Positions 1 through 23,940 of a DNA stretch of 27,901 nucleotides are shown piece after piece. A model generated the notes under the pieces. The model saw only the letters and a list, made by a program, of their open reading frames with translations, had not been told where the DNA came from and did no database searches. Positions within the stretch are counted from its first letter, which is position 1. Each line of letters opens with the position of its first letter. Source of the DNA: a virus (lineage: Duplodnaviria > Heunggongvirae > Uroviricota > Caudoviricetes). Made by a program: the position numbers and the translations under genes. The stretch lies in the IMG/VR virus record IMGVR_UViG_2684622620_000012. One strand, 5' to 3'.

Positions 1-255
1 ATGAACACTAAGGTGAAAGAAGCAGTAAAATGTTGGGCTTCTAGTCCAACGTGGTTTAGCAGGCATCCAATGGATACGGCGGAGTTCCGACGGGCTGTTT
101 CAAATCTCAAGCGCATTACCCCTACCCCATCTTTCGAAGAAATCAAAGAAGCGATCATGTTCTTTGTTTCCGATGCGCCGACAATGCTAGGTACGCCGTC
201 GGATATTCCTCAGGCGGTTCATGACTTCGCTGGAAAAATTTATAACAAGCTGTGA
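1..255 (+). CDS. hypothetical protein, 84 aa
   Basis: ATG at base 1, stop TGA 253-255, followed by a hairpin at 263-281. No motif recognised. May be the C-terminal part of a longer gene if the window edge cuts it. Confidence 0.4.
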   Translation: MNTKVKEAVKCWASSPTWFSRHPMDTAEFRRAVSNLKRITPTPSFEEIKEAIMFFVSDAPTMLGTPSDIPQAVHDFAGKIYNKL

Positions 256-262
256 GCAAAAT

Positions 263-281
263 GCGGGCTATCCCAGCCCGC
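263..281. terminator. hairpin GCGGGCT-ATCCC-AGCCCGC between convergent ORFs
   Basis: Perfect 7 bp inverted repeat with 5 nt loop; on the minus strand it is followed by ATTTTG. Sits between the stops of 1..255 (+) and 290..493 (-). Confidence 0.4.
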
Positions 282-289
282 ATCCCTAA

Positions 290-493
290 TTAACGCCGTA
301 ACTTGTTTGGCTTCGTCCATTGGTACGCCTTTTCGTTTTCCCGCCGCTGGTGGCGTTCCTGTTGCAGCACAACGGAAACAGGCGCTGAACACCTGTTAAT
401 TTTGCTTGCTGGTTGTTTGATTCCGGCAATGCTGCGGATCATCTCCAGCATATCGGCTTCGGTGATGGTCATAGGTTTCCTATCAGCACTCAT
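290..493 (-). CDS. hypothetical small protein, about 67 aa
   Basis: Track ORF 290..499 opens with TTG; first ATG is at 493. No clear Shine-Dalgarno. A plus-strand ORF 303..503 competes. Confidence 0.3.
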   Translation of the reverse strand: MSADRKPMTITEADMLEMIRSIAGIKQPASKINRCSAPVSVVLQQERHQRRENEKAYQWTKPNKLRR

Positions 494-521
494 ATCCAAT
501 TAATAAGTTCAATACAATGGA

Positions 522-1106
522 TTATCCCGTTTTAGTGACTAACCATTGCAGAATAACGATAATTAAATATGTTAATGTGCCAGTTCCAAGAAGTATTAAT
601 AATTGATAGCAACGTAGGGCAATATTACTAATCGATTTTTGCATCACGATATTCACTGGCTCAGCCACACACTCTTTAGATCTTATCGATAGAATACTTG
701 GAACTTCTCTATTTATTGATAATATTTCACATTGAATAGACTCACTAGGTGCAAGGCTTTCAAACTTGATAATATAGCGACCATCCTGTTCAATATTTTC
801 TTCAAAATGGTGGACAGGCCAAAAATTAATATGCATTGGCTTATAGTTAAAAACCAATGATATATTAGTAGCACTTTCTCGCCCTTCATTAACAAGAATA
901 ATAGATCGTGTATACACCAACTGTGAATTAGATATTACCTCACCATTAGCATTCCGTAAGGGTTCATTGAGAAGAAAAGTAAATCCATGCTGATAACCAT
1001 AGGATAACTTTGCCTTGCTTTTAAATCTGTTATTCAGTATCCATGTTAAAATCGCTATAAAAAAAGAAAATAGTTCTTTCCCATAAAGATTAAAAAAACT
1101 CATCAC
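522..1106 (-). CDS. membrane protein with N- and C-terminal transmembrane helices, 194 aa
   Basis: Hydrophobic helices FSFFIAILTWIL (N-term) and LLILLGTGTLTYLIIVILQWLV (C-term) flank a ~140 aa soluble region. GTG at 1106 and ATG at 1103, with AAGGAAA upstream. Markedly AT-rich compared with neighbours. Confidence 0.6.
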   Translation of the reverse strand: MMSFFNLYGKELFSFFIAILTWILNNRFKSKAKLSYGYQHGFTFLLNEPLRNANGEVISNSQLVYTRSIILVNEGRESATNISLVFNYKPMHINFWPVHHFEENIEQDGRYIIKFESLAPSESIQCEILSINREVPSILSIRSKECVAEPVNIVMQKSISNIALRCYQLLILLGTGTLTYLIIVILQWLVTKTG

Positions 1107-1225
1107 ACATTTCCTTCAGTAATCTGATTCTGCTGTCAAAGTTACCAGCACTATAGTCATTCATCCACATTGCGACAAGAAGGTTACAGCACGTTCAATC
1201 ACACCTTAGGAAATCTTAGGGGGCT

Positions 1226-1499
1226 GGTTGACACTTTCCGGCTTAAGACCTTAATAAATCTTAATATCGCAGGTTGACACACTTGACACTTTTTCGGGAA
1301 AAACCTTAACAAAACTTAACCATCCCTGGCATTTCTAAGCATGGCAACTTGACACTTTTCGCGATTTTTTCGGTTTTTTGACGTGGTGAATATGGTACAA
1401 GGCCAGTAATGGCGCGGCTTCCAGCAAGGTTGACACTTTTTCGCGTTCAGAGTGTAAAGTGTCAACCTGGCAAGCTGCTCAACTTGACACTTTTTGAGG
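1226..1499. repeat. array of six direct and one inverted copy of GGTTGACACTTTT(CG) (iteron-like)
   Basis: Direct copies at about 1226-1239, 1272-1280, 1281-1298, 1345-1363, 1426-1445 and 1481-1499; inverted copy AAAGTGTCAACC at 1457-1468. Second motif CTTAA(T/C)AAA(A/T)CTTAA occurs twice at 1248-1266 and 1305-1320. Confidence 0.7.
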
Positions 1500-2027
1500 T
1501 CATTGATGGCCTGATTTTTCCCATTCAGCCAGGGCGTTTAGTCCTGCCTCACTCCATGTGTCCTGTTCATCGGGACAATCGCTGGCAACATAGCATAGTT
1601 CACAACGCAGCATATGAATTGCCAGCCAGGCATTACCCCGCAAATTGTATTGTTCAAAGTAATGCTGTCCTTCATCATCCTCAAGGCAGATAGCACCATC
1701 ATCAAGAAAGTGCACTTCCCAGCCTAATTCCCCGGCTGCATTCAGCACACGCTGCCGTATGTCATCGTCCGTTACTGGCGCAGGGATTTTACCGTCTCTG
1801 GCCTTAACTGCTTTCCAGAACTCGCCCCACGTCATTTCCAGCGTTCTCTCTGGCCACATTTCAGAAACGGTGTCTTTCCCCTGTGCTGGTGGGCTGTTCC
1901 GCTGATCTGTCGCATCCACATCAATTTTTTTGCCAGACATGATCACTTCGCCTTTCTCGATCCAGTCGTAAACTGTCTGGCGGCTTACGCCTTTGTATTT
2001 GGCGTATTCGGCTTTACTCATCAACAT
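1500..2027 (-). CDS. DNA-binding protein with N-terminal helix-turn-helix (MerR/excisionase-like), about 175 aa
   Basis: N-terminal SKAEYAKYKGVSRQTVYDWIEKGEV resembles HTH_17/excisionase-type motifs. GAGGTGA sits 5 nt upstream of the ATG at 2027; the track ATG at 2045 lacks an SD. Confidence 0.6.
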   Translation of the reverse strand: MLMSKAEYAKYKGVSRQTVYDWIEKGEVIMSGKKIDVDATDQRNSPPAQGKDTVSEMWPERTLEMTWGEFWKAVKARDGKIPAPVTDDDIRQRVLNAAGELGWEVHFLDDGAICLEDDEGQHYFEQYNLRGNAWLAIHMLRCELCYVASDCPDEQDTWSEAGLNALAEWEKSGHQ

Positions 2028-2127
2028 GTAGCTCACCTCATGCATATACGATAAAAAAATAATTTCATGCGGAAAGGGAATGCGTTGTGGGTATGGAGGA
2101 AAGGGGCAATAACCGCCCCTTACTGAT

Positions 2128-2400
2128 TCAGTTGCGCCAGGATGGCTGGCTAAGCGTGGTTTTCATTACATCATTGACGACCTGTTTTACGATTTCTGTG
2201 TTGGCAGTCGTGCTTTCAACATCAACAAAGCCATAATCGCCAATTTCCACCGTCAGGGATTCCAGTTTCTTCCCTAGAGCATCAGGCAACTCTCCACTGA
2301 ACCGGTGCTGAAGATTTTCCACCAGCAACGCCCTGAATGCCTCGCTGTTCTCTTTTTTCTGCCATAGCTGGCGTTTATCCACTCTGATATTTAATTTCAC
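2128..2400 (-). CDS. hypothetical protein, 90 aa
   Basis: GTG start with strong SD AAGAGGTGA 5 nt upstream; start overlaps the stop of the upstream gene (GTGA), suggesting translational coupling. Confidence 0.55.
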   Translation of the reverse strand: MKLNIRVDKRQLWQKKENSEAFRALLVENLQHRFSGELPDALGKKLESLTVEIGDYGFVDVESTTANTEIVKQVVNDVMKTTLSQPSWRN

Positions 2401-2564
2401 AGTCTCACCTCTTTAAGTGCCTTATCCATCAGTTGCCGAGCGATAACATGAATCGACGGTGCCACACCAAGCACAGATTTCTGACGCTCTTCGTCCTGGA
2501 TGCGTTGCAGGGCTTCGATCTGCCTCCGGGAAAGTAAAACTGGCTTTACTCCGTGATTTTTCAT
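2397..2564 (-). CDS. small putative ribbon-helix-helix-like DNA-binding protein, 55 aa
   Basis: MKNHGVKPVLLSRRQIEALQRIQ...: short beta-strand-like N-terminus followed by two predicted helices. ATG at 2564; stop overlaps the downstream GTG start. Fold assignment is tentative. Confidence 0.45.
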   Translation of the reverse strand: MKNHGVKPVLLSRRQIEALQRIQDEERQKSVLGVAPSIHVIARQLMDKALKEVRL

Positions 2565-2842
2565 GATGATCCCTTCTGAATGACAATAATTGCAATTATT
2601 GCACAAATTGAAATGATACCAGAGACAATTGCAATAAATGAAACGAAAAGCATCAATAAACCAACCTTCGGCACTGAATGCTCTGATTTTTCTGCAAAGG
2701 TATGGCAGATGTTGGTGCATGCAAACATAAAGGCAATAGCAGAAGAAACAGCGGGGAGTGAAAAGGGGAAGTTTTTATAAATACACGATTGTCGCCTCAC
2801 TGCAGGTTAACAGCCACAAGCTCCATGATAATAACTTGTTAA

Positions 2843-3166
2843 TTATTTCATCAGATTTTTCATTATTTGCGCGATTGAGTACACAAGCAAAAACTCGGCA
2901 GCCGCAAGAGTATAAAAAACATAAATTCGCTTAGCCCACCGACGATGAAAGAACTCCTCAGCATGGCCGGATGTTCGAGATACAAGCCATGCACCTACTG
3001 CACACAGAGCAGGTGCAATGAGCACAGTTATAAACCAGATTGTGATGCCCATCCCATACCTACTGATAATAGCCATTGGTATTGCAAAAATGAATGTTAG
3101 AGCAGCATTAGCTAATAGAATATCTTTTAAAGTATTTTCAATTAGTTTTTCTAGATTATCTTTCAT
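2843..3166 (-). CDS. small integral membrane protein, 107 aa
   Basis: Three hydrophobic segments (e.g. ILLANAALTFIFAIPMAII, ITIWFITVLIAPALCAVGAWLV); ATG at 3166 preceded by a G-rich SD; AT-rich. Confidence 0.6.
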   Translation of the reverse strand: MKDNLEKLIENTLKDILLANAALTFIFAIPMAIISRYGMGITIWFITVLIAPALCAVGAWLVSRTSGHAEEFFHRRWAKRIYVFYTLAAAEFLLVYSIAQIMKNLMK

Positions 3167-3196
3167 CTAATCCCCCCCGTTGAACATTAATATATA

Positions 3197-3219
3197 AAAG
3201 CCCCTTACTAAGGGGCTTT
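3197..3219. terminator. perfect hairpin AAAGCCCCTTA/TAAGGGGCTTT between lipoprotein and membrane protein genes
   Basis: 11 bp inverted repeat with A-run upstream and T-rich sequence downstream on the minus strand; sits just after the lipoprotein stop at 3231. Confidence 0.55.
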
Positions 3220-3230
3220 GCACGGATTGT

Positions 3231-4373
3231 TTAAAGGGAACTTTTTTTCGCCCCTTCAATTTCTGCCTGACAAATTTCGTCATTTGTAAATGAGTACTGC
3301 AAATAGACATATCCCTGAGTGGAATTGTTCGCTCTGGCCTCAATATATATAGTATCAATATTGTTTTTTAATGGTATTTCTTTTGTTCCCTTCCATGTGG
3401 CAGATAAGAAGCGTTCTTTTTTGTTTAGCCCCCTCATCCAGTCCTGAGGATCTTTCCAAATTGAACCAGCCAGCAAAAAGTCTGTAGTATCAGCCTTTCC
3501 ATACAGAGAACTTAAAGAATTACTCAATTCTTCAAACTTGGATTTAAGAGCCAATCCATAGCTATCAGTATCAATATTTTTTCCTAAAGCCCGTATTTGA
3601 CATAAACCAGCTTTCGGGGAGATCAACAAACCATACATTTCAAAATCTGCGTTTTGCTTCGGTAATTTATCAGAAGTATACAGATTCACACTGTCTGGTA
3701 GTGGCTTGAGCTTAGCACCGATCATATCTTCGATGTTTTTCTGTGTAAGACCGGCTTCTAAGCCAAACGGACCATCCGCTGGCGGGAGTAAAGGAAGTTG
3801 CTCTTGGGAATTTTTGGCTGTTACTTCCGTTTCAGTACTGTTTTTTGCGTCATTATCTTGTACTGATGCCAGCTTAACTTCAGCGAGGCCATACTTGGCT
3901 GTGAGGTACTTTTGCTGCAACATTGCCATGGTCTGCTCTTCAGTGGCAACAGTAGATAATTTTAGTACCTTTATCAGACCACCACTATACTGACGAGCAT
4001 CAGCTTTGGCTTCGTTGATTTTTGCATCTAAGCTGTCAATTTCAGTTTTAATTGAAGCCGCAAGCTCAGGATCAGGTTTTACTCCAGATACAACAACATC
4101 AATTTTGGCGCCTGATTCAATAGCATTAATACGCTGTTCCAAAAGCGCTTTATTAGTTCCTAATATTTCCAGTCTTGCTGTTGTCAGATTTTTTATCAAC
4201 CCACCAGAAAACTGCTGGTCAACTTCCTTAGCTGCTGATATTTCACCTTCCGTTTGCGACAGTTCAGCTTTAAGAGCCGCTACTTCCTGTTTCTGTTCTG
4301 GAGTTAACTCTTCTGGCCCACATCCGGTTAACATTACTATACCGACTAATGTTGCAATTAAAGTTTTATTCAT
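3231..4373 (-). CDS. lipoprotein with coiled-coil-like internal repeats, 380 aa
   Basis: Signal peptide plus lipobox (MNKTLIATLVGIVMLTGC); an internal ~40 aa segment is duplicated (QQFSGGLIKNLTTARLEILG... and RQYSGGLIKVLKLSTVATEE); ATG at 4373; AT-rich. Confidence 0.75.
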   Translation of the reverse strand: MNKTLIATLVGIVMLTGCGPEELTPEQKQEVAALKAELSQTEGEISAAKEVDQQFSGGLIKNLTTARLEILGTNKALLEQRINAIESGAKIDVVVSGVKPDPELAASIKTEIDSLDAKINEAKADARQYSGGLIKVLKLSTVATEEQTMAMLQQKYLTAKYGLAEVKLASVQDNDAKNSTETEVTAKNSQEQLPLLPPADGPFGLEAGLTQKNIEDMIGAKLKPLPDSVNLYTSDKLPKQNADFEMYGLLISPKAGLCQIRALGKNIDTDSYGLALKSKFEELSNSLSSLYGKADTTDFLLAGSIWKDPQDWMRGLNKKERFLSATWKGTKEIPLKNNIDTIYIEARANNSTQGYVYLQYSFTNDEICQAEIEGAKKSSL

Positions 4374-4507
4374 ATCCCTATTCCAAATGAAAATATTCAG
4401 ATTAATCGTATCAGGAACCCAGATGCAATTGAATATTCATCTGCTCAGCAACGTAGTAGATTTCCTCAGAAAGCATCAACAAAAAACCAAGAGAATCCCA
4501 TCCTCTG

Positions 4508-4795
4508 TTACTGACTACAATTGTTCTTTTTTTGGTATTTCCTGAATGCCTCACCATTGGGCTGATGTAATCCCATCCCGACATGTGCCCGGCTGATGGT
4601 TTTGCGCATCTCCCCGAAATTATCCTGCCTTGCTGGTGGGCGTGCTGCCTTGTGGATACATTCCGCGCGACGTTTTGCCGCCTGTTCCCGTGCCTTGTCA
4701 TCATTCGCCAGCATGATGACCTCAGCCCACCGAGCCGCCGCTCTCCGGTACAGACCACGCGCTTCCAGTGCTTCCGCTTTGCTGTCGTGAATCAT
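4508..4795 (-). CDS. PerC-like transcriptional regulator (tentative), 95 aa
   Basis: N-terminal SKAEALEARGLYRRAAARWAEVIM resembles the conserved N-terminus of PerC/Pch-type regulators as I recall it; start overlaps the FinO-like stop (ATGA). Confidence 0.45.
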   Translation of the reverse strand: MIHDSKAEALEARGLYRRAAARWAEVIMLANDDKAREQAAKRRAECIHKAARPPARQDNFGEMRKTISRAHVGMGLHQPNGEAFRKYQKKNNCSQ

Positions 4796-5370
4796 GCGCC
4801 TGTTTTCTCCTTTGCTGCCCGGCGCTGACGTTTGCGCTTCTCATTCAGCGCCACCAGCCGCGTTTCTGCGTCCTGTTGTTCCTGTGGTGTCACCTCGCCG
4901 CACGGCTGGCCTTTCAGGTCGTAGCGTACCCCACCAGCCATTAAGGCGCGGTAATAGCGCGGACACTGCGCATAAGATGCCAGCGTCGCACGTAATGCCC
5001 CTGGCCCGAATGCCAGCCCCCTGACGGCGAGATTCTGCATCAGGTCGTCAAATATTCCCACCTTAAGCGGCTTCGGTGCTTCCCGGTTGAATAATTCAGG
5101 CCACAACTCAGTAAGGCGGTTAACGCGCCTGCGATTTTTGCGCTGGCGTTTGGTCATATGCCGCCACGATGTCGCCCCTGTGAGCTTCTGCTGCGCTTTC
5201 TGGTTACCGAGCATCACTTTATGCGCCGATGGGGTTTTATCCTGCTCCTGTGCCGCCTGCGTCGTTTTCTGCGGCGTGCCGTAAATGCCTTTCGGTTTTC
5301 TGTTAATGGTCAGCTTAGTCATGCTTTGCCCCATCGTTTTTACTGATTGTTTCATGCCCGGTACTTTCAT
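4792..5370 (-). CDS. FinO/ProQ-domain RNA-binding protein with basic N-terminal extension, 192 aa
   Basis: C-terminal half (LTELWPELFN...PLKVGIFDDLMQNL...LRATLASYAQCPRYYRALMAGGVRYDLKGQPCGEV) aligns by eye with the ProQ N-terminal/FinO domain of E. coli ProQ. Start uncertain: no good SD at any in-frame ATG. Confidence 0.75.
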   Translation of the reverse strand: MKVPGMKQSVKTMGQSMTKLTINRKPKGIYGTPQKTTQAAQEQDKTPSAHKVMLGNQKAQQKLTGATSWRHMTKRQRKNRRRVNRLTELWPELFNREAPKPLKVGIFDDLMQNLAVRGLAFGPGALRATLASYAQCPRYYRALMAGGVRYDLKGQPCGEVTPQEQQDAETRLVALNEKRKRQRRAAKEKTGA

Positions 5371-5399
5371 CTACCATCAACGTCAAAACTACGAAACGG

Positions 5400-5674
5400 G
5401 ATGCATTCATATAGATGCGCTGAACGTATACTGCAATAATGGCTGGGTGGAAATCGACAAAAACATCGCCGAAAACGCCTAACGTGGTGTGGCAGTGGGC
5501 CGGAAAAACTGGTTGTTCGCAGGTTCCAACAGCGGTGGCGAACATACTGCGGTGCTGTACTTGCTGATCGGCACGTGCCGTCTGAACAAGGAGGAGCCAG
5601 AAAAATGGTTGCGTTACGTCATTGAGCATATCCCGGACTGGACGGCAAACCGGGTACGTGATCTGTTGTCCTAG
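5400..5674 (+). pseudogene. IS66-family transposase, C-terminal remnant with in-frame stop
   Basis: GWVEIDKNIAENA*RGVAVGRKNWLFAGSNSGGEHTAVLYLLIGTCRLN... matches the conserved IS66 TnpC C-terminus (EIDNN...GRKNWLF...); TAA at 5480-5482 interrupts the frame; only ~90 codons of a ~500 aa transposase are present. Confidence 0.65.
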
Positions 5675-5962
5675 AAAGCCGATCTAACCGGGCAATAAAT
5701 ATCAAAACGGTTTTGGCGAGCCGCTTGCATCTCAACAAAACAATTGATATTTAAATAATAAAAATACATACACTACAATAAGTTAAATTATGAGGTTATA
5801 TTGGGGATACTTCACATAAAGAGTTATGATGACCCCGGATAACTTTATCGAAAGTACCGATGATAATCTAAGTTAACAATGAGTTTCAGTTTTTCGATTC
5901 ATACATGACATGGCTTGCACTATGTAAGTGATTAATTATTAATATTATTTTACGCATAATCG

Positions 5963-5990
5963 AGAAGGGGGCGCTTAAGTACCCCCAAAC
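5963..5990. repeat. AAGGGGGCGCT + CTTAAGTACCCCCAAA motif, shared with the integrase upstream region
   Basis: AAGTACCCCCAA (5977-5988) recurs exactly at 16276-16287; CTTAAGTACCCC(C)AAA recurs inverted at 16299-16314; AAGGGGCGCT recurs at 16333-16342. Also forms a local hairpin (GGGGG...CCCCC) just 3' of the peptidase gene. Confidence 0.4.
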
Positions 5991-5992
5991 TT

Positions 5993-6889
5993 TTAGATAT
6001 GCCGAATAAAGGATTGGTTATTAGAGCCTTCAATAAGCTTAACTGTAGGAGTGTTGAAAAGGGTTTGTGTACAACAGTGATGTACTGTAAGAACTGCGTC
6101 CTGAAACTGGGGATGGTCTTCAAGCTGAGTGATCCGCAAACCTAATTCAATGGCTCTCTCTGCGTGGATATGCCGAGAATGATCCTTCGTATCCGTACGA
6201 TTGTTTAAGCTTTTGACAATCGCAGTGGCGAGTTCGCTACGCCGAGGTTCAGGTAAATCTTTAAGCATTCCATTTTTTAACCATTCAGTAACCAAATCAT
6301 CGGCAAGCTGAATAGCTTTGCTAGCTGTATCAAAAATGGTAGGTGGGTAGCGCGAGATGATTGTTTGCCAAATCGGGAGGCTGGAAGGTTCTTTTTGAAT
6401 GCTATCAATAGCATTTTTTAACTCTTCCAAAATACCATAAGCTGAAAGACCACCAAAGATATGAGGATCAAAAGGTCCGATACTTGAATGATGCCCCATT
6501 ACAATTTCTTTGCAGGCACACGCAATCATTGTTCCTGCAGACATGCTCATTTGAGGAACAATGGCCCGAATATCACCATTAAAAAGCTTTTTAAGGTAGT
6601 AAACCAGAGACTCAGCCGCAGTTATAGAACCACCAGGGGTATGCAAGAAAAGGTCTAAGCCTTTCGTTCTATCCATTCCGTTAACAACAGCCATGAAACC
6701 ATTTTTGTCATCATCATTGATGCTGACATGCTGATGATTACCGTTATGTAAAAAGTCTGTGTAGTAACATATTACGTTTCTATCAGTACTGTCACTCAAA
6801 GCTTTTATGTACTTACGGCGGACAATATCAAAGCGAGAATCGTCTTGGAGGCTTTGGATTTCCTCCAAGACTTGGGCCAGATTGGGCAT
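5993..6889 (-). CDS. ClpP/crotonase-fold serine peptidase (S49/SDH-like family), 298 aa
   Basis: [20 protein letters not shown]...[23 protein letters not shown] matches the TPGG...SAGT nucleophile region of ClpP/SppA/serine-dehydrogenase-type proteases; AAGGA sits 8 nt upstream of the ATG; AT-rich. Confidence 0.65.
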
Positions 6890-6907
6890 GGGATGGTAAC
6901 GTCCTTG

Positions 6908-7132
6908 TTAAGCTTTTGTAGTGGTGCTTACATGCAAAGTTGAGTAGCCAGTTGTTCTGGTAGAACACTTAAGCTTAGTCATCTCATGTTGATGAGAAAA
7001 ACTTGCAACACCGCTTAAGCCGCCGAACTCATGGCTCATTGCGCCAAATTGTTGTGGGAACTGGATACCTGAAGTATTTGATGCCACAAGTCCCGTTTCC
7101 AAGAGAATTTTTTCGTAATTGATTTCAGCCAT
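6908..7132 (-). CDS. small hypothetical protein, 74 aa, upstream partner of the peptidase
   Basis: ATG at 7132 with GGAG 8 nt upstream; stops 18 bp before the peptidase start. S/T/G-rich with no recognised motif. Confidence 0.4.
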   Translation of the reverse strand: MAEINYEKILLETGLVASNTSGIQFPQQFGAMSHEFGGLSGVASFSHQHEMTKLKCSTRTTGYSTLHVSTTTKA

Positions 7133-7210
7133 GTTAGTACTCCGCTAAATGTAGTGCTTGCGTCAATGCTTCGACACTACATGTTGTTTTTATAGTTCTT
7201 TTTAGACAGA

Positions 7211-7244
7211 AAAACCCCGCTGTCTGGCGAGGTTTTATTTTTCT
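7211..7244. terminator. hairpin AAAACCCCGC...GCGAGGTTTT with flanking T-runs
   Basis: ~10 bp imperfect stem with loop TGTCTG, followed by TTTATTTTTC on plus and TTTTTC on minus; separates the helicase-fragment region from the peptidase operon. Confidence 0.35.
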
Positions 7245-7379
7245 TATGCTGATAATAGCAGCAATTATAAGAAGTCAAAGTCTTTTTATGTAAATTTTAA
7301 GCTGTTAGGGGTGATTTTTCTCTAACTTGTTGATTCGTTCTCAAGCTAAGTCATGTTTTAAGAGCGGCAACTGCACTAA

Positions 7380-8274
7380 TAACCTGCCCGTTCTCAGACA
7401 TGATTCGTGAAAATGCGAGACGTTTCAGCTGCTCCATATCGAGTCCAGGAGCCCGTAGTAATGCATCAGACAGTTCCTGCTACTTTCCGCTGTACATCGA
7501 CAGCAGCATTTTCCTGACTGCTGCGCTCGAACCTACCGAATGCCTGAACATCATCAGATGCCAGTGGTTTAACCGGTGAGAATCTGTTCATCAGATAATC
7601 GAGAATGTTTGCAGTCTGCTTGCTTACGGCAGACACACCACGAGTAAAGGATTTAAGCGTGTCCAGATTCCACCCGCTCTGCGGTTTTTTGCCTGTTCGT
7701 TAAAATCCGGATCGTTGCGGATAACGTCAAGCAATTCTGCCTCTACTTCTGCCCGCTGCGCCATGACGCGTAGGTTAGTCAGTTCGCCGACCATGCCGCA
7801 GAATAAAGCATCCATCTGAGTATTTGGCGCAGCAACCTTACCGGCATAATCCACCAGCATTCCCACGCAATCAGCTAGCCGCTTCAGGTGGTCACAGAAG
7901 GCGTACAGCTTTACCTCCAGTGCCTCTTTGCTGTTCCGTTTCCTCAGCAGCAGCGCCCGCTCTTTTTCCGGGGTCCTTATCTTCCTCACTGACGCGACAG
8001 TTAAACTGGAAAATAACACGGCGACGGGCAACGCTTCCGGCGTGTTCGGTAAAAATCATCGGCGTATTATTCGTGGCCACAACCACCGCCCGGCATATTC
8101 TGTAAAACTTACGCTCTGTCCCTGTCGCATCCAGTGCGCAATCATGATCAGAGTTCTGGTAAAGCGGTGAATATCGCCGCATAGTCCACATGATGTCGCA
8201 AAACTTTTCAGCTCTTCACGCTCTATGTAAGTCATACCCTGAGGTATGTAACGTTCTGTTTTCATTTTTAACAT
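7380..8274 (-). pseudogene. decayed C-terminal fragment of a D5/P4-alpha-type (SF3) primase-helicase
   Basis: Three broken ORFs (8056..8274, 7892..8191, 7624..8031). The middle one carries VVVATNNTPMIFTEHAGSVARRRVIFQFN, resembling SF3 helicase motif C plus the downstream RR...F segment of D5/P4 primases. No Walker A/B upstream; frame changes and an in-frame stop present. Confidence 0.4.
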
Positions 8275-8280
8275 TCCTGA

Positions 8281-8680
8281 TTTTTTAATTCCTCACCTGC
8301 TGCGCAGTGAGAATTTATGAAGTTAATAACAATATGATTTTAAATATATTTTTAAGCACTCACTTTTTAATCCTTATATATACGCAAAAGTGAGGTAAAT
8401 AGTTAAGTTTTAGTTAATATCTTGCATGGTATGTTTTTTAACCTACCTGTTATTTTTATTACCTCATTTCTATTAACTCACCATTCCTCACTTTTGTTCC
8501 TCACTTTTTGTTATTCTTGTTCTGCTCCTCAGTCGTTTTCTTTATTGTTGTAATATGTTGTTTTGCAATGTTTTTTTAATTCCTCATTTTTTGATCTATA
8601 TACAGGTGAGAAAGTGAGGAAAACAGGGATGATTTTTAAATATTCCCTTCCCCCCTCACTTTTACGCTTCACTTTTTACA
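8281..8680. repeat. iteron-rich AT-rich region (more than 10 copies of TTCCTCACTTTT in both orientations), candidate origin
   Basis: Copies at about 8291, 8358, 8388 (inv), 8461, 8477, 8486, 8499, 8581, 8606-8620 (inv pair), 8653, 8668; exact 15-mer TTTTTTAATTCCTCA at 8281-8295 and 8573-8587; lies immediately 3' of the helicase gene. Confidence 0.6.
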
Positions 8681-10088
8681 GTGGGCGCACATCATCACCG
8701 TCAATAGCGATTACGCCGTCACCTTCCAGCTTGTACAGCCAGCGCCGGAAGTTTTTCATCTCATACCCCAGCTTTTTCATGTCATCGCGCAACAACGGAA
8801 TAGTACATTTATCTCCGCGTTGCGTGCGTGAACGAATACAACCCCATAGTGCGGCGTGATTCTCCGTCTTGTTCCCAGCTTCCTCGATGCGCTCCAGTTC
8901 AACCGGCGGACGGGGCTTATCCTCCAGCACCAGCGACGTGATTAACTCCCCGCCCTCATCCTTGAAAAGCTCAACCTCGCGCAAATCGCAAGCCATTTCT
9001 TTCAGTTCCTCCGCATCCTTCATCTTGGTACATGCGATAACCAGGGCTTCACTGCCTGCACCTTCACGGCGTATCCGGTATTCTGCATCCAGTGCTGCAC
9101 GAAACGCACTGGAACCGCGCGCACCCTTTGTTTCATCCTTGCCGGAATGGTGAATTACCAGCACTGTAGCGCCTGTACGTCGTTTCAGTTCGTCACATCC
9201 ATGGACAAATGCCCCCATATCCCGCGCATCATTTTCATCGCTGCCACCAAAGCAACGCGCCAGAGTATCCAGAATAATCATGCGTACAGGTTTACCCGTT
9301 TCCTGCTCAACCTGTCGGGCAGCAATAACCATTTCATCAACATCACCCGGTGCGGCCGGAAAAATTGGACGATTTACCAGGTATAGATTTTTCACCTGCT
9401 CACTGTTCACCAGTTCCCATGCCTTGATACGACGAGGAACACCGATCCCGCCCTCACCAACGACATACATCACCGCACCATGTACAACCCTGCGACCTCC
9501 CCACGGGATACCGGTAGCAACATGACACGCCCACGAACACGCAAGGAACGACTTATAAGAACCGCTCGCACCGTATGTGCTACATAGCGAATTAGCCGGA
9601 ATCACGCCCTTAACTACATAGCTAAGCTGTGAATCATATCCTTCCGATCCAATGCTCATTGGTAGCGTGGTTTTTCGCTGGCTGTATTGCTCGTCAGTAA
9701 GTATTTCCCCGCGCTCAGCCTGTTCGCGGATCCGTTGCAGGTAGTCGTGCCAGTTCTCCGGCTCCCCGTCGGTGATACCTTTGTATAATTTCGCCTCCTG
9801 TACGCCAGCCAGCGCCAGCTTTTCAGCGATAGCATTGATCTGGATTGGTTCGATCTCCCCCGCGAGATAGACACGCGCAAAGCGGCGTTCATCGTCGACA
9901 ATGCGGATATTCGCCAGGTCTGCCAGTTGCTTTGGCCCCAGGTAAACAGGTGGTACGTTATCGCCGTGTTTTCGTCCTTCGCTTTCAATCCAGTGTTGAG
10001 CATGGGCGTAAGCATCCGTCCCGGCAAAAATGATTACCTCGGTGAATTTATCCTTCGGCTGATATTTTAAATTCGGTGCGTTTTTCAC
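8676..10088 (-). CDS. RecA-like NTPase, RepA/DnaB-type replicative helicase (AAA_25-like), 470 aa
   Basis: P-loop YGASGSYKS, Walker B-like MIILDTLARCF, and VLVIHHSGKDETKGARGSSAF typical of RepA/DnaB-family helicases; GTG start with GGGAGGT 6 nt upstream, overlapping the upstream stop. Confidence 0.7.
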   Translation of the reverse strand: MKNAPNLKYQPKDKFTEVIIFAGTDAYAHAQHWIESEGRKHGDNVPPVYLGPKQLADLANIRIVDDERRFARVYLAGEIEPIQINAIAEKLALAGVQEAKLYKGITDGEPENWHDYLQRIREQAERGEILTDEQYSQRKTTLPMSIGSEGYDSQLSYVVKGVIPANSLCSTYGASGSYKSFLACSWACHVATGIPWGGRRVVHGAVMYVVGEGGIGVPRRIKAWELVNSEQVKNLYLVNRPIFPAAPGDVDEMVIAARQVEQETGKPVRMIILDTLARCFGGSDENDARDMGAFVHGCDELKRRTGATVLVIHHSGKDETKGARGSSAFRAALDAEYRIRREGAGSEALVIACTKMKDAEELKEMACDLREVELFKDEGGELITSLVLEDKPRPPVELERIEEAGNKTENHAALWGCIRSRTQRGDKCTIPLLRDDMKKLGYEMKNFRRWLYKLEGDGVIAIDGDDVRPL

Positions 10089-10375
10089 TTCTTACCTCCC
10101 GCAACCAACATTGCCCGGATTTTTTTAATATTCGTGGCTGCACGTCTCGCCACCGCCTGTTGTTTGTTTTCAACCAGAATAAAATCACGCTCAAACTGAC
10201 GGCGCGGCATTACGCAGTCATATTCGTAAGCCTCACGGCGGTAGGTGATATTGCCTGGCGTAACGTGACGAATAACCACTCGTCCCCCACGTCTGGTGTC
10301 GCGGTAAATATCTCCGTGTCTGATTTCAGGCCGAGAGAGACCGCTGGCAGTAAAGCCAGAATTTTTCTTTTTCAT
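10085..10375 (-). CDS. hypothetical basic protein, 96 aa
   Basis: Member of a chain of tightly packed minus-strand small genes; stop overlaps the helicase GTG start. Confidence 0.5.
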   Translation of the reverse strand: MKKKNSGFTASGLSRPEIRHGDIYRDTRRGGRVVIRHVTPGNITYRREAYEYDCVMPRRQFERDFILVENKQQAVARRAATNIKKIRAMLVAGGKK

Positions 10376-10379
10376 GGTT

Positions 10380-10580
10380 TTATTTTCCTGTCAGCAGTTC
10401 CGGTTTTATTTCCGCACGAATACAAAGTTCAGAAAAAAATTCAGGAGAACCAACAATCTCATTACTTTTCAGTCGGCATTGTGATTTCACTTTCCCTTTA
10501 TCTAGGTAAACCAGTACGCGTCCGGTGAAATCATCTGGCACATTAAGCACTACGGGTACATGCGCTTCATGATTATGCAT
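10380..10580 (-). CDS. hypothetical protein, 66 aa
   Basis: Start overlaps the upstream gene stop; no recognised motif. Confidence 0.45.
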   Translation of the reverse strand: MHNHEAHVPVVLNVPDDFTGRVLVYLDKGKVKSQCRLKSNEIVGSPEFFSELCIRAEIKPELLTGK

Positions 10581-10806
10581 GGCTTACATCCTCCGTGAAT
10601 TTTCTTCTGTAACGCGTCTCTGCCACATATTCCGCATAGTCTGACGCAATACTAAGAATCATTTCACCCTCTGACTTGTAGCCACTGGTATTGATAAGAA
10701 AATATGCAGCTTTCATCATGTCAGCAACGCTCAACAATGCGCCCGCTGCATCTTCCTGTGCGCCATCAAATTCCCGTTTCAGGGAATTAAAACGATCATC
10801 ACGCAT
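10573..10806 (-). CDS. hypothetical acidic protein, 77 aa
   Basis: Start overlaps the upstream stop; no recognised motif. Confidence 0.45.
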   Translation of the reverse strand: MRDDRFNSLKREFDGAQEDAAGALLSVADMMKAAYFLINTSGYKSEGEMILSIASDYAEYVAETRYRRKFTEDVSHA

Positions 10807-11164
10807 GTTTACCCCCCTGAATGACCTGATAACCGCAACTGGTCAGCAACTCGATAAATTCCGGCAGTGTGCCGAAACAGCAATCATCACGCAGCCGTTC
10901 GCAGGATACCTCGACGCCGTTTTCGTAGTGACTCACCATACGTCCGGTAAAATGCAGATCATCATCGTGATGACTCGTTGACGGCTTAATCAGTCGCGCA
11001 CGTTCCGCCAGTTCCAGCAATGCTTCAACGCTTCCGGCAATTGCACCATCCGGCAGGTGATAATTACGCACTATGCGCCCGTTCTCCACATTGACCAGCA
11101 ACTGCCCGGTAAATTTCTCGTCAAACTGAATGCTGTTAAGGTCAGAAATTGACAGGTTATGCAT
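10799..11164 (-). CDS. hypothetical protein, about 121 aa
   Basis: ATG at 11164 with AGGAGG upstream, 2 nt after the upstream stop; the track ORF extends to 11182 without an RBS. Confidence 0.5.
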   Translation of the reverse strand: MHNLSISDLNSIQFDEKFTGQLLVNVENGRIVRNYHLPDGAIAGSVEALLELAERARLIKPSTSHHDDDLHFTGRMVSHYENGVEVSCERLRDDCCFGTLPEFIELLTSCGYQVIQGGKHA

Positions 11165-11381
11165 AGTGCACCTCCTGCACATCAGCCATGATAATTTTTC
11201 CGGCCTTATCCAGTGCCTGATCGGCTTTTAGCTGCACAAATGCTAAATAATGGAAGATGCATTCTGATTCTCTGGCTGCGTGTTTATGCGCCACACCAGC
11301 GATAGCAGAAATCTCAATAAGTGAATCCATCAGCGTTTTGATAGTGTCTACCGCTGCATCAGGCCATGTTGCATTACACAT
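11157..11381 (-). CDS. hypothetical protein, 74 aa
   Basis: ATG at 11381 overlaps the stop of the upstream gene. Confidence 0.45.
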   Translation of the reverse strand: MCNATWPDAAVDTIKTLMDSLIEISAIAGVAHKHAARESECIFHYLAFVQLKADQALDKAGKIIMADVQEVHYA

Positions 11382-11739
11382 GCTCCACCTCCTGGCGAAT
11401 ACGGGCAGTGAATACCATCACGCAGCCATCAGGAGATTGCTGGCGTGCTTCCTGTTCGCTGGTGGCCTCGATGTGAATCACGCGCGGTTGTGCCGTACTC
11501 AGGGCGATAAAACGCCATATAAAATTGTTTTCGCATTTCTGAATAAACAGCGTGTTTTCTTCGCGCCCTTTCCATGTTGCCGAGATATAGCCCATGTCAT
11601 TGAGCATCTTGCAGGCATCAACCAGCGTATCGGCGGCTACGTGTACAGTGTTTTTACCGTCAGCCATGCAATCACGGTGCACCGCCAGGAAGGTGTATAT
11701 AAATTTAGGGTGAGTTTGAGTATGCTGTGTTCCAGCCAT
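11374..11739 (-). CDS. hypothetical protein, 121 aa, first gene of the early operon
   Basis: ATG at 11739 with GAGGT 7 nt upstream; the track ORF runs on upstream to 12831 in the same frame, but that upstream part looks non-coding or frameshifted. Confidence 0.5.
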   Translation of the reverse strand: MAGTQHTQTHPKFIYTFLAVHRDCMADGKNTVHVAADTLVDACKMLNDMGYISATWKGREENTLFIQKCENNFIWRFIALSTAQPRVIHIEATSEQEARQQSPDGCVMVFTARIRQEVEHV

Positions 11740-11813
11740 AATCGTTACCTCATTTAACGGTTTGGTTAGACGCCCTGCATGTGTTGCGAGCACTGCGGGG
11801 CGTTGCTCTTTTA

Positions 11814-11861
11814 GGTGTATTTCACCTTTGCTTTTTAATTTACTTACTGGTGAAATACACT
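11814..11861. promoter_or_regulatory. operator-like inverted repeat GGTGTATTTCACC ... GGTGAAATACAC(T) in a divergent promoter region
   Basis: 12/13 bp inverted repeat separated by 22 bp, between the early operon start (11739) and the divergent RHH gene (11927); TATACT -10-like hexamer at 11891-11896. Confidence 0.5.
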
Positions 11862-11926
11862 TCAAGCCTTTTTTTATCATTTTTTTTGCGTATACTGACA
11901 TACACCAATTTTTAGGAGATCCAGAA

Positions 11927-12106
11927 ATGGCAACTGGTGCAAAGAACGCAAAATCACAAATGACAACTGTCAGAATCCCACATGAAGTAATGGATGATAT
12001 TGAGCAACTTAAAGAACCTGGCGAAAGTACCGCTGGTTTTTTAGTTACTGCTGCAAAAGGCGAGATCAAACGCCGCCAGCGCCGCAAGGCCAAAGAACAG
12101 GAGTAA
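11927..12106 (+). CDS. small ribbon-helix-helix-like regulator, 59 aa
   Basis: AGGAGAT SD 6 nt upstream of the ATG; MTTVRIPHEVMDDIEQL fits an RHH beta-strand plus helix; divergent from the early operon; basic C-terminal tail. Confidence 0.5.
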   Translation: MATGAKNAKSQMTTVRIPHEVMDDIEQLKEPGESTAGFLVTAAKGEIKRRQRRKAKEQE

Positions 12107-12823
12107 CCATCACCAGCGCCGTGGTGTGAGGGACTACGGTGCATCGTTTTACAGGGCAGCGCCATGACCAACAAAGAATCAACCAATACACCATCACCGG
12201 CACGGAAAAGACAGCGCAGAAAGATAGCGTACGAGCATGAGTCAAACAGATTCGCGCCCTGTGCGTTTATCCTTGAGAAATTCCTTAAAGAGTACAGGCG
12301 CACAAAAATGGGATCGCATACCTGGAAAACATCGCGGCATGGCGATGTTAAAGAGCAGGAATAGCCCACCAGCAAGCCAGCATATTCACCATAATGACCC
12401 TCAGTTAAACATAGAGTCATTGGTGCAAAGCTGACACATTGCCCACCAGCCGCAAATCTGGCATTGTTGGCGATGCGTTCAAGTATGTAGCTTTCCCACT
12501 GGCGGCCCTCTGCGGTCGCCTTTGTTTTATCCAGAACGAAATCAGACATCAGATTGATCAGCACCTGGCGACCTGACAAAATCGCATCAGTCGCGCCACC
12601 AGCAAAATTTTTTGCTTTTCGGACAGTGTGATCAACGACATTTTGCAGCAAAATATTCTGCATTTCTGGCGTGCTGTAGTAACGGTGATCAGCGCCTTCA
12701 CTCTGTGCGACCACAACGCTATAATCTGCCTCGTAGACAGTAAGCAATATGGCGCAGTAGGCTATTCGTTCACAAAGGCGCTCCGGCAACGGGGCGCTTT
12801 CTCTTTTTGTAACGGTCAGAGCG

Positions 12824-13624
12824 TTACACATGGCTGTTTTCCTCCATGCGACGGGCTAACCAACGCTGCGAAAGACGAATTAATTCAGCCTTCCGCTGGT
12901 GGTAGTCCTGGCCTAACTCAATCAGCGTGATATTGCTCTGCTCAAGGTAAGAAAGGTGCTCAAGCTGCAACGTGCTCATGTGGTCGCGTGGTTCGCCTGT
13001 AATGCCGTTCGCCAGTGCCCACTGTTTTGCAGTCATGCCACCCAGCACGATACGCGCCAGCATGCTCGCTTCCGTGGTGTAGTGGTGCTGGAGTGTGTTT
13101 TTACCCAGTTCAGCCCGGTACGCCTCCAGCGCGGCACACATTGGCTTAAAGTAGCTGGCAACTGTGATACGGGCTTTCAGTTCCCGGCGTAACGCTGCGG
13201 AACGAACAGGCGCAACCTTGTGTAGCTCCTCCTCGCATTTGATAAAGTACTGGCGAACGGCGCGGCCCTGTTCGGTACGTTCGACCATCGCCAGTTCTTT
13301 CGCCATGTTCACTGTGATGATGTACTCAAGAGCGGTTTGCTGGCGAGATTTTGCGCTCACCGGATCGGGTCGGCTCAAATATTCAACAACCTCATAATCC
13401 ACGCCTTCCGTGAACCCGTATTCTTCAATGCGCCCCTTGATCCACGAACGGAAAACGCGCCCTACACCTAACGCCTTATGTAACGCTCTGGCGCTAACAA
13501 TAGTGGTTTCACTCCCGCCAATAACGCCGGAAATAATCGGGATAATTTCGCCGAAATTTTGCAGATTCTGGTTTTCAGGCCGAACGAAGCCCCGCCCCTG
13601 TACGGGCGTTTTTGGAAATTTCAT
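12824..13624 (-). CDS. phage antirepressor-like protein (AntA-type N-terminal domain), 266 aa
   Basis: TTIVSARALHKALGVGRVFRSWIKGRIEEYGFTEGVDYEV resembles the AntA/AntB antirepressor N-terminal domain; downstream of alpA on the same strand. Confidence 0.6.
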   Translation of the reverse strand: MKFPKTPVQGRGFVRPENQNLQNFGEIIPIISGVIGGSETTIVSARALHKALGVGRVFRSWIKGRIEEYGFTEGVDYEVVEYLSRPDPVSAKSRQQTALEYIITVNMAKELAMVERTEQGRAVRQYFIKCEEELHKVAPVRSAALRRELKARITVASYFKPMCAALEAYRAELGKNTLQHHYTTEASMLARIVLGGMTAKQWALANGITGEPRDHMSTLQLEHLSYLEQSNITLIELGQDYHQRKAELIRLSQRWLARRMEENSHV

Positions 13625-13701
13625 AAAAACTCCTGCTATCGAATTAAGTTACTTTTATTTGCTGGTGGATAGCTGGGGGCAATAGCCCCGTAGCCATTTA
13701 A

Positions 13702-13899
13702 TCAGGTAGCTGTTCCGCGTGATTCCGCAATACGCTGATTAATCCACTCGTCAATTTCACTCTCAACGAAAGCAATAGCTCGCGAGCCAATTTTAACTGA
13801 TGCAGGAAATTTACCTTGCCCCATAAGGCGATAAATCCATGCCTTGCTATATCCAGTTCTACGCTGAACTTCTGTTAAACGAATAAGCGTATTTGACAT
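13702..13899 (-). CDS. alpA: AlpA-family transcriptional regulator, 65 aa
   Basis: LIRLTEVQRRTGYSKAWIYRLMGQGKFPASVKIGSRAIAFVESEIDEWI is a close match to the AlpA (CP4-57 regulatory protein) HTH signature. Confidence 0.85.
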   Translation of the reverse strand: MSNTLIRLTEVQRRTGYSKAWIYRLMGQGKFPASVKIGSRAIAFVESEIDEWINQRIAESRGTAT

Positions 13900-14093
13900 A
13901 TATTTACCTCATAACGTCTACTCAATTTGACGAGGTAATCATGGCACAGAAATAACGAATATTTTCATACCCTCAGGCCTAATGGTTACCGGAAGGAAAT
14001 TAACCCTAAGGGTGATGGTAAAATTGACGGGGAAGATAAAAAAATACCCTCAGGGTAACAGTAAATCACCCTCAGGGTATGCGGTATGGTGCG

Positions 14094-14891
14094 TTAATCC
14101 GGCTTTGCGTTCTTTTGGCTGTTGTCTCGGTTAATAGGGCAGGCAGTCCTCTCTATGAGCGTTGCAAGTGCATTACTTGCCCCCCACTGCTTAAGCTCCC
14201 TAGTTATCGCTTCTTGATTTCCCCTGGTGGCAAAATCATTTTCTGGATCGTAATTGGCCCACTCTCTGTTTCTAATCTCAATAGCCTTAGCTAATGGGTC
14301 TTTATCCCAGTATTTATATAAGTGTATCGGGCGCTCTTGCTCTAACTGCTCTATCCTTGCCCTTAACTCTGCGTTTTCTTTTTCCAGCATTGCGATTTGG
14401 GATAATAAATCATCCTCTGTACGCAACTCTTTCTTTTCAATATCGCGTCCTTGTGCCTCGTCATTTTCAGAAGAGTTAGCGCCTTCCAGCTTCGTTAACG
14501 CGTCAAGGACATCGGGAAAAATTGCGAAAATTTCACCCCTTATAAATCCAATGTTCTCAAATTCGGGATCTTCCCAATAACCGGACACCAGAAAACCATT
14601 TTCATCCCTCTCACCAGGTAAACAACCACGTTTCCGAACCGCATTCAGATTTCTATAAAGAACATCATAATCAAATTCATCCCGATACGGGTTACAAAAA
14701 GATTCCAACAGCTTAAATTCATTTACTGTGTACAGGCGGATATGTTCTCCGCTTATTCTCCTGAGTATCCAAGTTATGACATCTGAAACATCATAATCAT
14801 CACCAGCGACCTTAAGCACGACCTCAAGAAATTCACGTAAAGAAATAAAATCTTTTTTGTATTCGTTTAATTCGGCATGAATATCAATCAT
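14094..14891 (-). CDS. hypothetical protein with central coiled coil, 265 aa; cargo gene between int and alpA
   Basis: ATG at 14891 with GAGGT 6 nt upstream; leucine-zipper-like segment LLSQIAMLEKENAELRARIEQLEQE; lower GC than flanking genes; no recognised catalytic motif. Confidence 0.6.
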   Translation of the reverse strand: MIDIHAELNEYKKDFISLREFLEVVLKVAGDDYDVSDVITWILRRISGEHIRLYTVNEFKLLESFCNPYRDEFDYDVLYRNLNAVRKRGCLPGERDENGFLVSGYWEDPEFENIGFIRGEIFAIFPDVLDALTKLEGANSSENDEAQGRDIEKKELRTEDDLLSQIAMLEKENAELRARIEQLEQERPIHLYKYWDKDPLAKAIEIRNREWANYDPENDFATRGNQEAITRELKQWGASNALATLIERTACPINRDNSQKNAKPD

Positions 14892-15019
14892 ACGCACACC
14901 TCAGCGTCCTCTACTGTAGTGGCTGTACCAGTCCGTCGAGGTGTACGGATTTTCGGGAGCGACCCTAGACACAGCCTTTTCTTTCGTCGCTCAAAGTCTA
15001 CTACTGTATACGCAACCAG

Positions 15020-16234: not shown

Positions 16235-16342
16235 TTGGGGGTACCTCCACTAAACCGAACAGCAAATACCCCCAAAAGTACCCCCAATTGACTGTAGATT
16301 TTGGGGTACTTAAGTAGACGTCAAAAGACTAAAAGGGGCGCT
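16234..16342. repeat. cluster of GTACCCCCAA / GGGGTAC motifs and AAGGGGCGCT upstream of the integrase
   Basis: TTGGGGGTACC (16235-16245, inverted), ATACCCCCAAAAGTACCCCCAA (16266-16287), TTTTGGGGTACTTAAG (16299-16314, inverted), AAAAGGGGCGCT (16331-16342); one copy each also at 5963-5990. Confidence 0.5.
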
Positions 16343-16562
16343 AACATGCGGATTATAAGAGGTTTTTAAATACTTGAGTAGACTTGGGGAGACGTTAGAA
16401 TGGTGCCGATAATAGGAGTAAAACACTCGATTAATCTCGTGTTAATGCCATCACCTACGACCATTACTAATTGATTGAATCTTATAGAAAAAATCATCAT
16501 TTTCTATGCGTTACAATCAATTTTCACATTACAAACGCTCCGACACTTTAGCCGGGGAGTTT

Positions 16563-17840: not shown

Positions 17841-17847
17841 ACGTAAT

Positions 17848-17880
17848 AAAGAGGCTTCAACATAGATTGGTAGCCTCTTT
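17848..17880. terminator. bidirectional hairpin AAAGAGGCT...AGCCTCTTT between convergent genes
   Basis: Perfect 9 bp inverted repeat with 15 nt loop and flanking A/T runs, in the 80 bp gap between the recombinase stop (17840) and the 17922..18635 gene stop. Confidence 0.55.
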
Positions 17881-17921
17881 TATAATTACATCGTTACAGA
17901 GCGTTTTAGAGGCGTTTACGG

Positions 17922-18635: not shown

Positions 18636-18669
18636 AATAATAATTTTCCTTGTAATGTTATGGCGGGAA

Positions 18670-20508: not shown

Positions 20509-20519
20509 TTAAAATCCCC

Positions 20520-20723: not shown

Positions 20724-20753
20724 ATTTTAATCACCTCTCAAAATTTAAAAAAA

Positions 20754-20779: not shown

Positions 20780-20808
20780 ACGCCACGCCTCTAATACACG
20801 TTAAAATA

Positions 20809-21837: not shown

Positions 21838-21855
21838 TTATTATTATTCCTTTTA

Positions 21856-23106: not shown

Positions 23107-23107
23107 A

Positions 23108-23929: not shown

Positions 23930-23940
23930 AACCCTCCTTA

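Follow-up and report, generated by a model that had tools for sequence, protein, structure and literature searches.

The virus record IMGVR_UViG_2684622620_000012 (Caudoviricetes; 27,901 nt, hereafter the window) carries on its minus strand two adjacent genes, one for a small protein of 74 amino acids (the partner) and one for a ClpP-fold serine peptidase of 298 amino acids. With a probability of roughly 0.7, we identify this pair as an intact copy of the two-gene anti-phage module FS_HP_SDH_sah, carried as cargo of a satellite-type island integrated at thrW. DefenseFinder lists FS_HP_SDH_sah as a defence system composed of a small hypothetical protein (HP) and an SDH_sah peptidase. SDH_sah is, we take it, the earlier Pfam short name of PF01972; given this equivalence, the peptidase gene belongs to the named family, while the adjacent 74-aa gene, conserved together with the peptidase, stands in the ‘HP’ position. 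The island has the genes of a satellite: an integrase gene (int), an AlpA-type helix-turn-helix (HTH) gene, an Icd-like gene and primase/RepA genes. Like the catalogued system, the pair thus consists of two adjoining genes and is cargo of an int-alpA-primase satellite-type island of Enterobacteriaceae; it differs in that the cassette sits mid-island, in a mosaic segment beside decayed genes. The prefix FS presumably stands for Fillol-Salom et al. (Cell 2022), a study of immune systems encoded by phage-inducible chromosomal islands (PICIs). This work reportedly found that PICI satellites of E. coli and Klebsiella carry immune systems in their accessory region, FS_HP_SDH_sah being one described from such satellites, and tested these systems against phages.

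A first-pass annotation, made from the letters of the window alone, had read this region as a small open reading frame (ORF) coupled to a ClpP-like peptidase, each with its own Shine-Dalgarno sequence, and had suggested that the two are accessory cargo with a toxin, effector or defence function. Both ORFs are real and intact, and a defence- or toxin-type role is supported by the peptidase fold, by the accessory and defence contexts of homologous pairs and by the DefenseFinder listing. The defence reading is therefore supported, and the module is already known. We know of no published mechanism for the FS_HP_SDH_sah system; a literature search on PF01972/SDH-family Clp-fold peptidases and an anti-phage role returned nothing mechanistic.

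The peptidase and its small partner

The profile search proposed in the first-pass annotation assigned the 298-aa protein to Pfam family PF01972 (SDH_protease, ‘ClpP-like SDH-type serine proteinase’) with an E-value of 9e-19 and 68 bits, above the gathering score of 31.3. An identical protein in RefSeq is named ‘SDH family Clp fold serine proteinase’. The full-length PHROG match was phrog_11747 (‘unknown function’, E 4.6e-85). The score against the NCBIfam equivalog NF047768 was 82.7, below the cut-off of 250; therefore, the peptidase represents a distinct subfamily. Two further Pfam matches were sub-threshold, NfeD1b_N (PF25145; 26 versus 40 bits) and Clp_protease (PF00574; 18.5 versus 20.2 bits). 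With PF00574 below threshold and no gene for a Clp ATPase (ClpX/ClpA) in the cassette, the protein does not classify as a subunit of an ATP-dependent ClpP (S14) protease.

The motifs TPGGS and MSMSAGT singled out in the first-pass annotation are present. In an alignment of 20 homologues from many phyla, including one archaeon, the invariant positions are TPGG 84-87 (the oxyanion-region turn), Ser117, Asp141, His237, His240, His270 and His271; the Ser, Asp and His candidates follow each other in this order along the chain. Comparison with solved structures aligned Ser117 (MSMS117AGT) with the active-site Ser of ClpP in AASMG. Because of these invariant residues and this alignment, the peptidase looks catalytically competent, with a predicted Ser117-Asp-His arrangement. 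The predicted structure has the ClpP/SppA/NfeD fold. As in ClpP (S14) and SppA (S49), the nucleophile Ser is located in a G-x-S-x-G-type turn; unlike them, the peptidase has an extra helical C-terminal half of ∼150 residues, which carries the conserved His residues according to both the alignment and the model. A search of solved structures gave distant ClpP and NfeD matches and none from the family of the peptidase.

The partner gene is preceded by GGAG (7143-7140), 7 nt before its ATG, and the peptidase gene by AAGGA, 12 nt before its ATG, a rather long spacing; each gene thus has its own Shine-Dalgarno sequence, as had been claimed. The two genes are separated by 18 nt. Close relatives of the 74-aa protein formed seven homologue clusters with 65–95% identity. 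The N-terminal helix INYEKxLLETGL is kept and the last 22 residues (KLKCSTRTxxYSTLHVSTTTKA) are invariant; variation is confined to the middle, which has an in-frame indel of four codons. Conserved ends with an in-frame indel in a variable middle are the pattern expected of a coding sequence, so the partner gene is a real one. The peptidase gene lies directly downstream in all loci of these homologues that were read. When modelled alone with AlphaFold2, the partner formed a helix at residues 6-13 only and was otherwise unstructured, with a confidence score (pLDDT) of 61. Five small partners matched no Pfam, PHROG or NCBIfam family, and the 74-aa protein had no match in these collections or in PADLOC.

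Table 1. Features of the module, the cassette and the island, with R-M-associated pairs in other genomes (window coordinates unless a locus is named; R-M, restriction-modification)
Feature	Position	Strand	Basis
Whole mobile cassette (leader, partner gene, peptidase gene, 190-nt tail)	5803-7363	-	blastn
Small partner gene (‘HP’), 74 aa	6908-7132	-	ORF list; homologue clusters
SDH-family ClpP-fold serine peptidase gene, 298 aa	5993-6889	-	ORF list
Promoter-like element: -35 TTGACT (7278-7273), 15-nt spacer, extended -10 TGcTATTAT (7260-7252)	7252-7278	-	sequence reading
Intrinsic-terminator-like leader hairpin (AAAACCUCGC-CAGACA-GCGGGGUUUU, then UCUGUCU)	7211-7236	-	folding and covariation
Second leader hairpin, ending 5 nt before GGAG	7149-7182	-	covariation
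Weak hairpin, 7 nt after the peptidase stop	5967-5986	-	folding
Mosaic segment of 4.4 kb with the cassette, replacing 1.8 kb of the sister primase gene	5339-9704		homology breakpoints
Transposase remnant	5489-5674	+	mosaic segment
Frameshifted remnants of a D5-type primase-helicase gene and of a 264-aa ORF of the Klebsiella-type island	7400-8274	-	three overlapping ORF fragments in different frames; blastn
Pair within or beside type I R-M genes	L065 4310-10134; L085 5109-10074; L078 47-1775

Homologous pairs and their genomic contexts

Homologues of the peptidase number thousands at 45–55% identity, across bacterial phyla and archaea: among 8,000 scored candidates, 6,962 proteins had E ≤ 0.001. 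At least 579 matches were in species-representative genomes, and at E ≤ 1e-30 the homologues formed 283 clusters at 50% identity.

To characterize the neighbourhood we used the DNA beside 80 peptidase genes, each from a different bacterial or archaeal species, with 7,962 ORFs of 30–160 aa. In nearly all 80 loci an ORF of 50–80 aa is located just 5′ of the peptidase gene on the same strand. Iterated profiles built from these upstream ORFs (E ≤ 1e-3) detected a partner beside the peptidase in 56 of the 80 loci, 54 times upstream-adjacent and twice downstream-adjacent. For the 54 upstream partners the gap to the peptidase gene is between −41 and +55 nt; the peptidase start codon is overlapped in 25 cases. 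The sole non-adjacent match comes from a pair split by an insertion sequence (IS)-like transposase ORF: at L084 (3424-6909), ∼2.4 kb with an IS4-like transposase ORF fragment lies between the two genes, apparently due to an IS insertion. The order is reversed (peptidase, then partner) in three loci. In two metagenomic proteins, P0225 and P0232, partner and peptidase are fused in frame; in these single ORFs a partner-like N-terminal segment (e.g. ...EEIQRMFEEMGLGTEEERRRF...) runs straight into the peptidase (MANWNEV...). The Pseudomonas and Aeromonas copies have a terminator hairpin between the two genes, an arrangement that would give the partner in excess over the enzyme. The partners repeatedly show an N-terminal helix motif like EIExVFxxLGL and an extended C-terminal segment, such as FKKC(S/T)(I/L)...Y.(S/T)(S/T) or SLEQPSPLK.VPS.TTYG.

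The genes downstream of the pair are evenly split by strand (39 versus 39), so the unit consists of two genes only. The small protein was also considered as the precursor of a bacteriocin or of another ribosomally synthesized and post-translationally modified peptide; this reading was rejected, as no modification enzyme or exporter recurs beside the pair and the downstream neighbours are equally often on either strand.

Homologous pairs recur in variable cargo positions, as the first-pass annotation had anticipated. The pair is located between Mor and lysis genes in Mu-like prophages and in Shewanella phage MuM16-1, after gpD in a P2-like prophage and in the accessory region of P22-like prophages. 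In an enterobacterial prophage the integrase gene is followed by the pair and then by HicAB and an acyltransferase gene; in a Pseudomonas prophage the pair lies between the attachment-site tRNA and the integrase gene; in Gordonia phage BeeGee it is found in the central region. In a Klebsiella int-alpA-primase island (L104; int-HTH_17-DUF4222-D5 primase) the cargo ends with the pair, which borders the chromosomal menA-hslUV junction opposite the integrase.

A census of the two nearest genes on each side, by Pfam, in the 80 loci showed mostly unrelated genes. The most frequent family was the specificity subunit of type I restriction-modification (R-M) systems; HsdR, BrxL, integrases and IS transposases were also seen. 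In Fibrobacterales, HsdS is encoded immediately upstream of the pair in two Fibrobacter metagenome-assembled genomes (MAGs; L065 and L085) and one Hallerella MAG (L078); the two Fibrobacter loci have the order hsdS, partner, peptidase, hsdR, with a gap of 1–10 nt between the peptidase gene and hsdR. The pair directly follows GmrSD in a Bacilli MAG.

The gene logic of the pair is that of type II toxin-antitoxin (TA) modules. In both, the first gene is small, labile-looking and fast-evolving and is coupled in translation to a larger gene for an enzyme, either gene order is seen and the modules are found in mobile elements and defence islands; adjacency and co-translation of a small partner, as type II modules have, are seen in the counts given above and in the short gap in the window. 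A plain addiction module, stabilizing the island or prophage by post-segregational killing with no specific anti-phage role, would explain the overlapping stop and start codons, the occasional reversal and the predicted disorder of the partner. HicAB repeatedly neighbours the pair, and many copies are solitary in chromosomes, e.g. among housekeeping genes in a Methanomicrobiales genome. We still consider plain addiction unlikely: the pair is found between hsdS and hsdR and next to GmrSD, it occupies satellite and prophage slots that usually hold immunity cargo, and DefenseFinder lists the system as defence. The partner, moreover, differs from the type II class in having no recognizable DNA-binding domain and, to our knowledge, a ClpP-fold peptidase is no established class of TA toxin. 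Addiction and anti-phage roles are not mutually exclusive.

Several observations weigh against the assignment to FS_HP_SDH_sah. It rests on the architecture and on the type of element, not on a model score or on identity to a tested locus. A scan of both proteins and four neighbours against the defence profiles of PADLOC-DB v2, a search that the first-pass annotation had suggested, gave no match, and the database has no corresponding model. By phmmer the window partner is linked to L002 only (E 2.7e-6); hhalign gave a probability of ∼1% or lower for its relationship to the large partner families, and a merged profile misses it. What ties it to these families is its position and a resemblance of motifs (the N-terminal ...GL helix and the C-terminal K-C-S...Y-S-T). 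In roughly one in four of the 80 loci the profiles detected no partner.

Porphyromonas phages carry the pair within the block of structural genes, next to HicAB and between portal/adaptor and neck genes, where unannotated ORFs flank it. This arrangement speaks for a morphogenetic or life-cycle protease of the mobile element, a category that covers prohead and scaffold proteases, factors that redirect capsid size and enzymes that cleave a repressor. It is joined by a weak and distant profile similarity to ClpP-related head-maturation proteases (phrog_53, 2e-8; NF045542, 3.5e-7, far below cut-off), which extends over ∼70 residues around the active site. Such a function is very improbable: the pair was found beside annotated capsid or scaffold genes in none of the contexts examined, it holds accessory positions in prophages, it also occurs inside R-M operons and in chromosomes devoid of phage genes, and no capsid genes are near the pair in the island of the window. 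Over its full length the peptidase matches a PHROG family without assigned function, and its C-terminal half differs from that of the head-maturation enzymes. A prohead protease in particular was rejected on context, as in the loci examined the pair shows no linkage to portal, scaffold or major capsid genes (the one structural-block case being flanked by HicAB); the doubts of the first-pass annotation about this role were justified, with the Porphyromonas phages as a caveat.

How the pair may work

The analysis shows the fold with its conserved active site, the constant pairing of the genes, their settings in accessory regions and defence islands, and the catalogue name; the role of the partner, the trigger, the targets and the function of the leader are inferred. 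The partner probably serves the peptidase as a pseudo-substrate or regulates it. We propose a cytoplasmic peptidase controlled by a co-translated, intrinsically disordered partner because the partner is co-translated, is sometimes in excess, is disordered when alone and evolves fast except in its helix and tail. In this model the partner would be anchored to the enzyme by its N-terminal helix, and its extended C-terminal tail, rich in Ser and Thr, would occupy the active-site groove, either as a substrate or as a pseudo-substrate. Once infection removes or diverts the partner, the peptidase would be free to cleave phage proteins or essential host proteins, and phage production would stop. Provided that the pair is a defence system, it is possible, at somewhat worse than even odds, that the partner occupies the active site in this manner and that infection releases the enzyme.

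The suggested role of the partner recalls NfeD (1510-N) proteases, which act on stomatin, encoded in the same operon, by cleaving its tail. The NfeD enzymes are membrane-anchored, with a Ser-Lys dyad and a large membrane scaffold as the partner, whereas the enzyme of the window is soluble, has conserved Ser, Asp and His and goes with a disordered partner of 50–80 aa.

The small protein could instead be an adaptor, a specificity factor handing a phage protein to the peptidase and thus providing direct, non-abortive immunity. Between taxa the partner varies strongly, against 45–55% identity in the peptidase, as expected for a component that tracks phage proteins; judging from the natural fusions, permanent tethering of the partner is tolerated, and this suits an adaptor better than an inhibitor that has to be removed. 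We regard the adaptor as quite unlikely, though, since conservation within each partner family is highest in the extended C-terminal tail and not in a folded recognition domain, and intergenic terminators giving an excess of partner fit an inhibitor better.

A broader version of the inhibitor proposal is rather doubtful. Here the partners would all belong to a single family, ancient and fast-evolving, of disordered pseudo-substrate ‘antitoxins’. The SDH peptidase would be an effector of abortive infection throughout the prokaryotes and, once released, would cleave a cellular protein that is conserved universally; the promoter-terminator leader described below would add a second level of control, at transcription. 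If true, this would explain why the enzyme remains ∼50% identical from E. coli to methanogens while the partner diverges beyond recognition.

The comparative picture provides hypotheses and constructs for the study of a ClpP-fold peptidase acting in immunity without an ATPase. The features that feed these hypotheses are the near-universal partner, both gene orders, the fusions, the ratio-biasing terminators, the embedding in R-M operons and the structured leader.

The cassette, its leader and the host island

The two genes travel within a larger unit. Nucleotides 7363-5803 of the window align with positions 8768-10328 of the Klebsiella island in a single blastn block (1,566 nt, 92% identity), with homology ending at both edges; the system thus moves between Klebsiella and E. 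coli satellites as a 1.56-kb cassette. Hairpins had been proposed in the first-pass annotation to bound the module on both sides. These hairpins do exist, the 3′ one being weak, but they are no boundary: the shared DNA runs past both. The 3′ hairpin (ΔG −11.7, z −1.8, a poor U-tract) is followed by a further 160 nt of shared DNA. The upstream hairpin, given as 7211-7244, does not delimit the module because it is located downstream of a conserved promoter-like element, inside the conserved leader.

The 150 nt ahead of the partner gene are conserved at least as well as the genes, as judged from nine cassettes. The promoter-like element is kept in seven of the eight leaders covering it (in cassettes with partner proteins 65–95% identical). 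The first leader hairpin has a ΔG of −15.2 kcal/mol and a z-score of −3.55; in eight distinct leaders all cells (100%) are paired, with two compensatory pairs. The second hairpin has 82% paired cells and a single compensatory change, from G-C to A-U, and its fold by itself is unexceptional (z −1.24). Neither the leader promoter nor the hairpin was picked up by a scan for consensus promoters and terminators, whose counts did no better than those of shuffled sequences; the promoter-like element escaped the scanner because its spacer has only 15 nt. An Rfam scan of 5400-8800 gave nothing above threshold; sub-threshold matches resembling small RNAs (istR, isrJ) fell on the leader terminator. As to what the leader does, we infer from its sequence and folding that it could be of an attenuator type, or could yield a short RNA together with a read-through mRNA. 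The putative promoter and the terminator-hairpin leader probably keep expression of the cassette low or conditional.

The GC content of the cassette is 0.40, compared with 0.47–0.56 in the integrase, RepA and ProQ genes. The module is thus more AT-rich than the backbone, as had been claimed, but this does not set it apart from other cargo of the island, which is equally AT-rich (0.33–0.40).

Nucleotides 1-16417 of the window are 100% identical to E. coli APEC20/16. The stretch 5700-7500 occurs in 6 of 5,426 complete E. coli genomes and is thus distributed sporadically. In sister strains the element is integrated beside thrW/proA. The gene order of the island is int, HTH (AlpA-type), AntA/B, Icd-like, DUF4222, replication gene, ProQ/FinO, PerC, further genes and, at the far end, gapS1. 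The first-pass annotation had placed the module at the end opposite the integrase. This placement does not hold, as the island continues for ∼6 kb (ProQ, PerC, others, and gapS1 beyond the window) and the module is mid-island; the positional rule applies to the Klebsiella island, where the pair is opposite the integrase, and not to the window.

The gapS1 gene (GAPS1 family) is located at L001 12144-13742, ∼560 nt to the left of the window start in APEC20/16. Since gapS1 and the cassette reside in one island, at least two catalogued defence genes are present there; annotation of the pair adds the second catalogued defence system.

Sister islands have a D5/DUF5906 primase gene directly before ProQ. 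Homology to the island of strain WWCOL-236 ends at 5338 and restarts at 9705, which defines a mosaic segment in place of part of this gene. From 9704 down to 5339 the segment contains a RepA/AAA_25 helicase part, an iteron field, frameshifted remnants, the cassette and a transposase remnant. The replication gene has the N-terminal ∼128 codons of the sister primase, with the C-terminal part swapped for a RepA-type helicase domain.

The neighbour described in the first-pass annotation as a decayed helicase gene is indeed a decayed D5-type primase-helicase gene. Nucleotides 8092-7908 are 85–88% identical to the intact primase gene of the Klebsiella island, and 7728-7681 are 90% identical to the 264-aa ORF of that island (blastn). 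The remnants and, with them, the cassette originate from a Klebsiella-type island.

Just downstream of the RepA/AAA_25 helicase gene, the AT-rich region 8280-8675 (GC 0.30) is non-coding and dense in direct and inverted AAAGTGAGG/CCTCACTTT copies (many GTGAGG/CCTCAC). This region is probably the iteron-type replication origin of the island variant.

A long ORF of 485 aa (11374-12831, minus strand) overlaps short annotated genes (the Icd-like gene and, on the other strand, YlcI/YnfO) and has no annotation in RefSeq; it is probably a chance ORF.

The integrase gene of the island is abutted by a second tyrosine integrase gene (16506-17840, plus strand). Beyond this gene lies a distinct element that has baseplate-like and major capsid genes (e.g. 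20809-21837), the whole region spanning 16506-27901. This second element is also present in WWCOL-236 and is absent from APEC20/16; therefore, the window holds two mobile elements in tandem.

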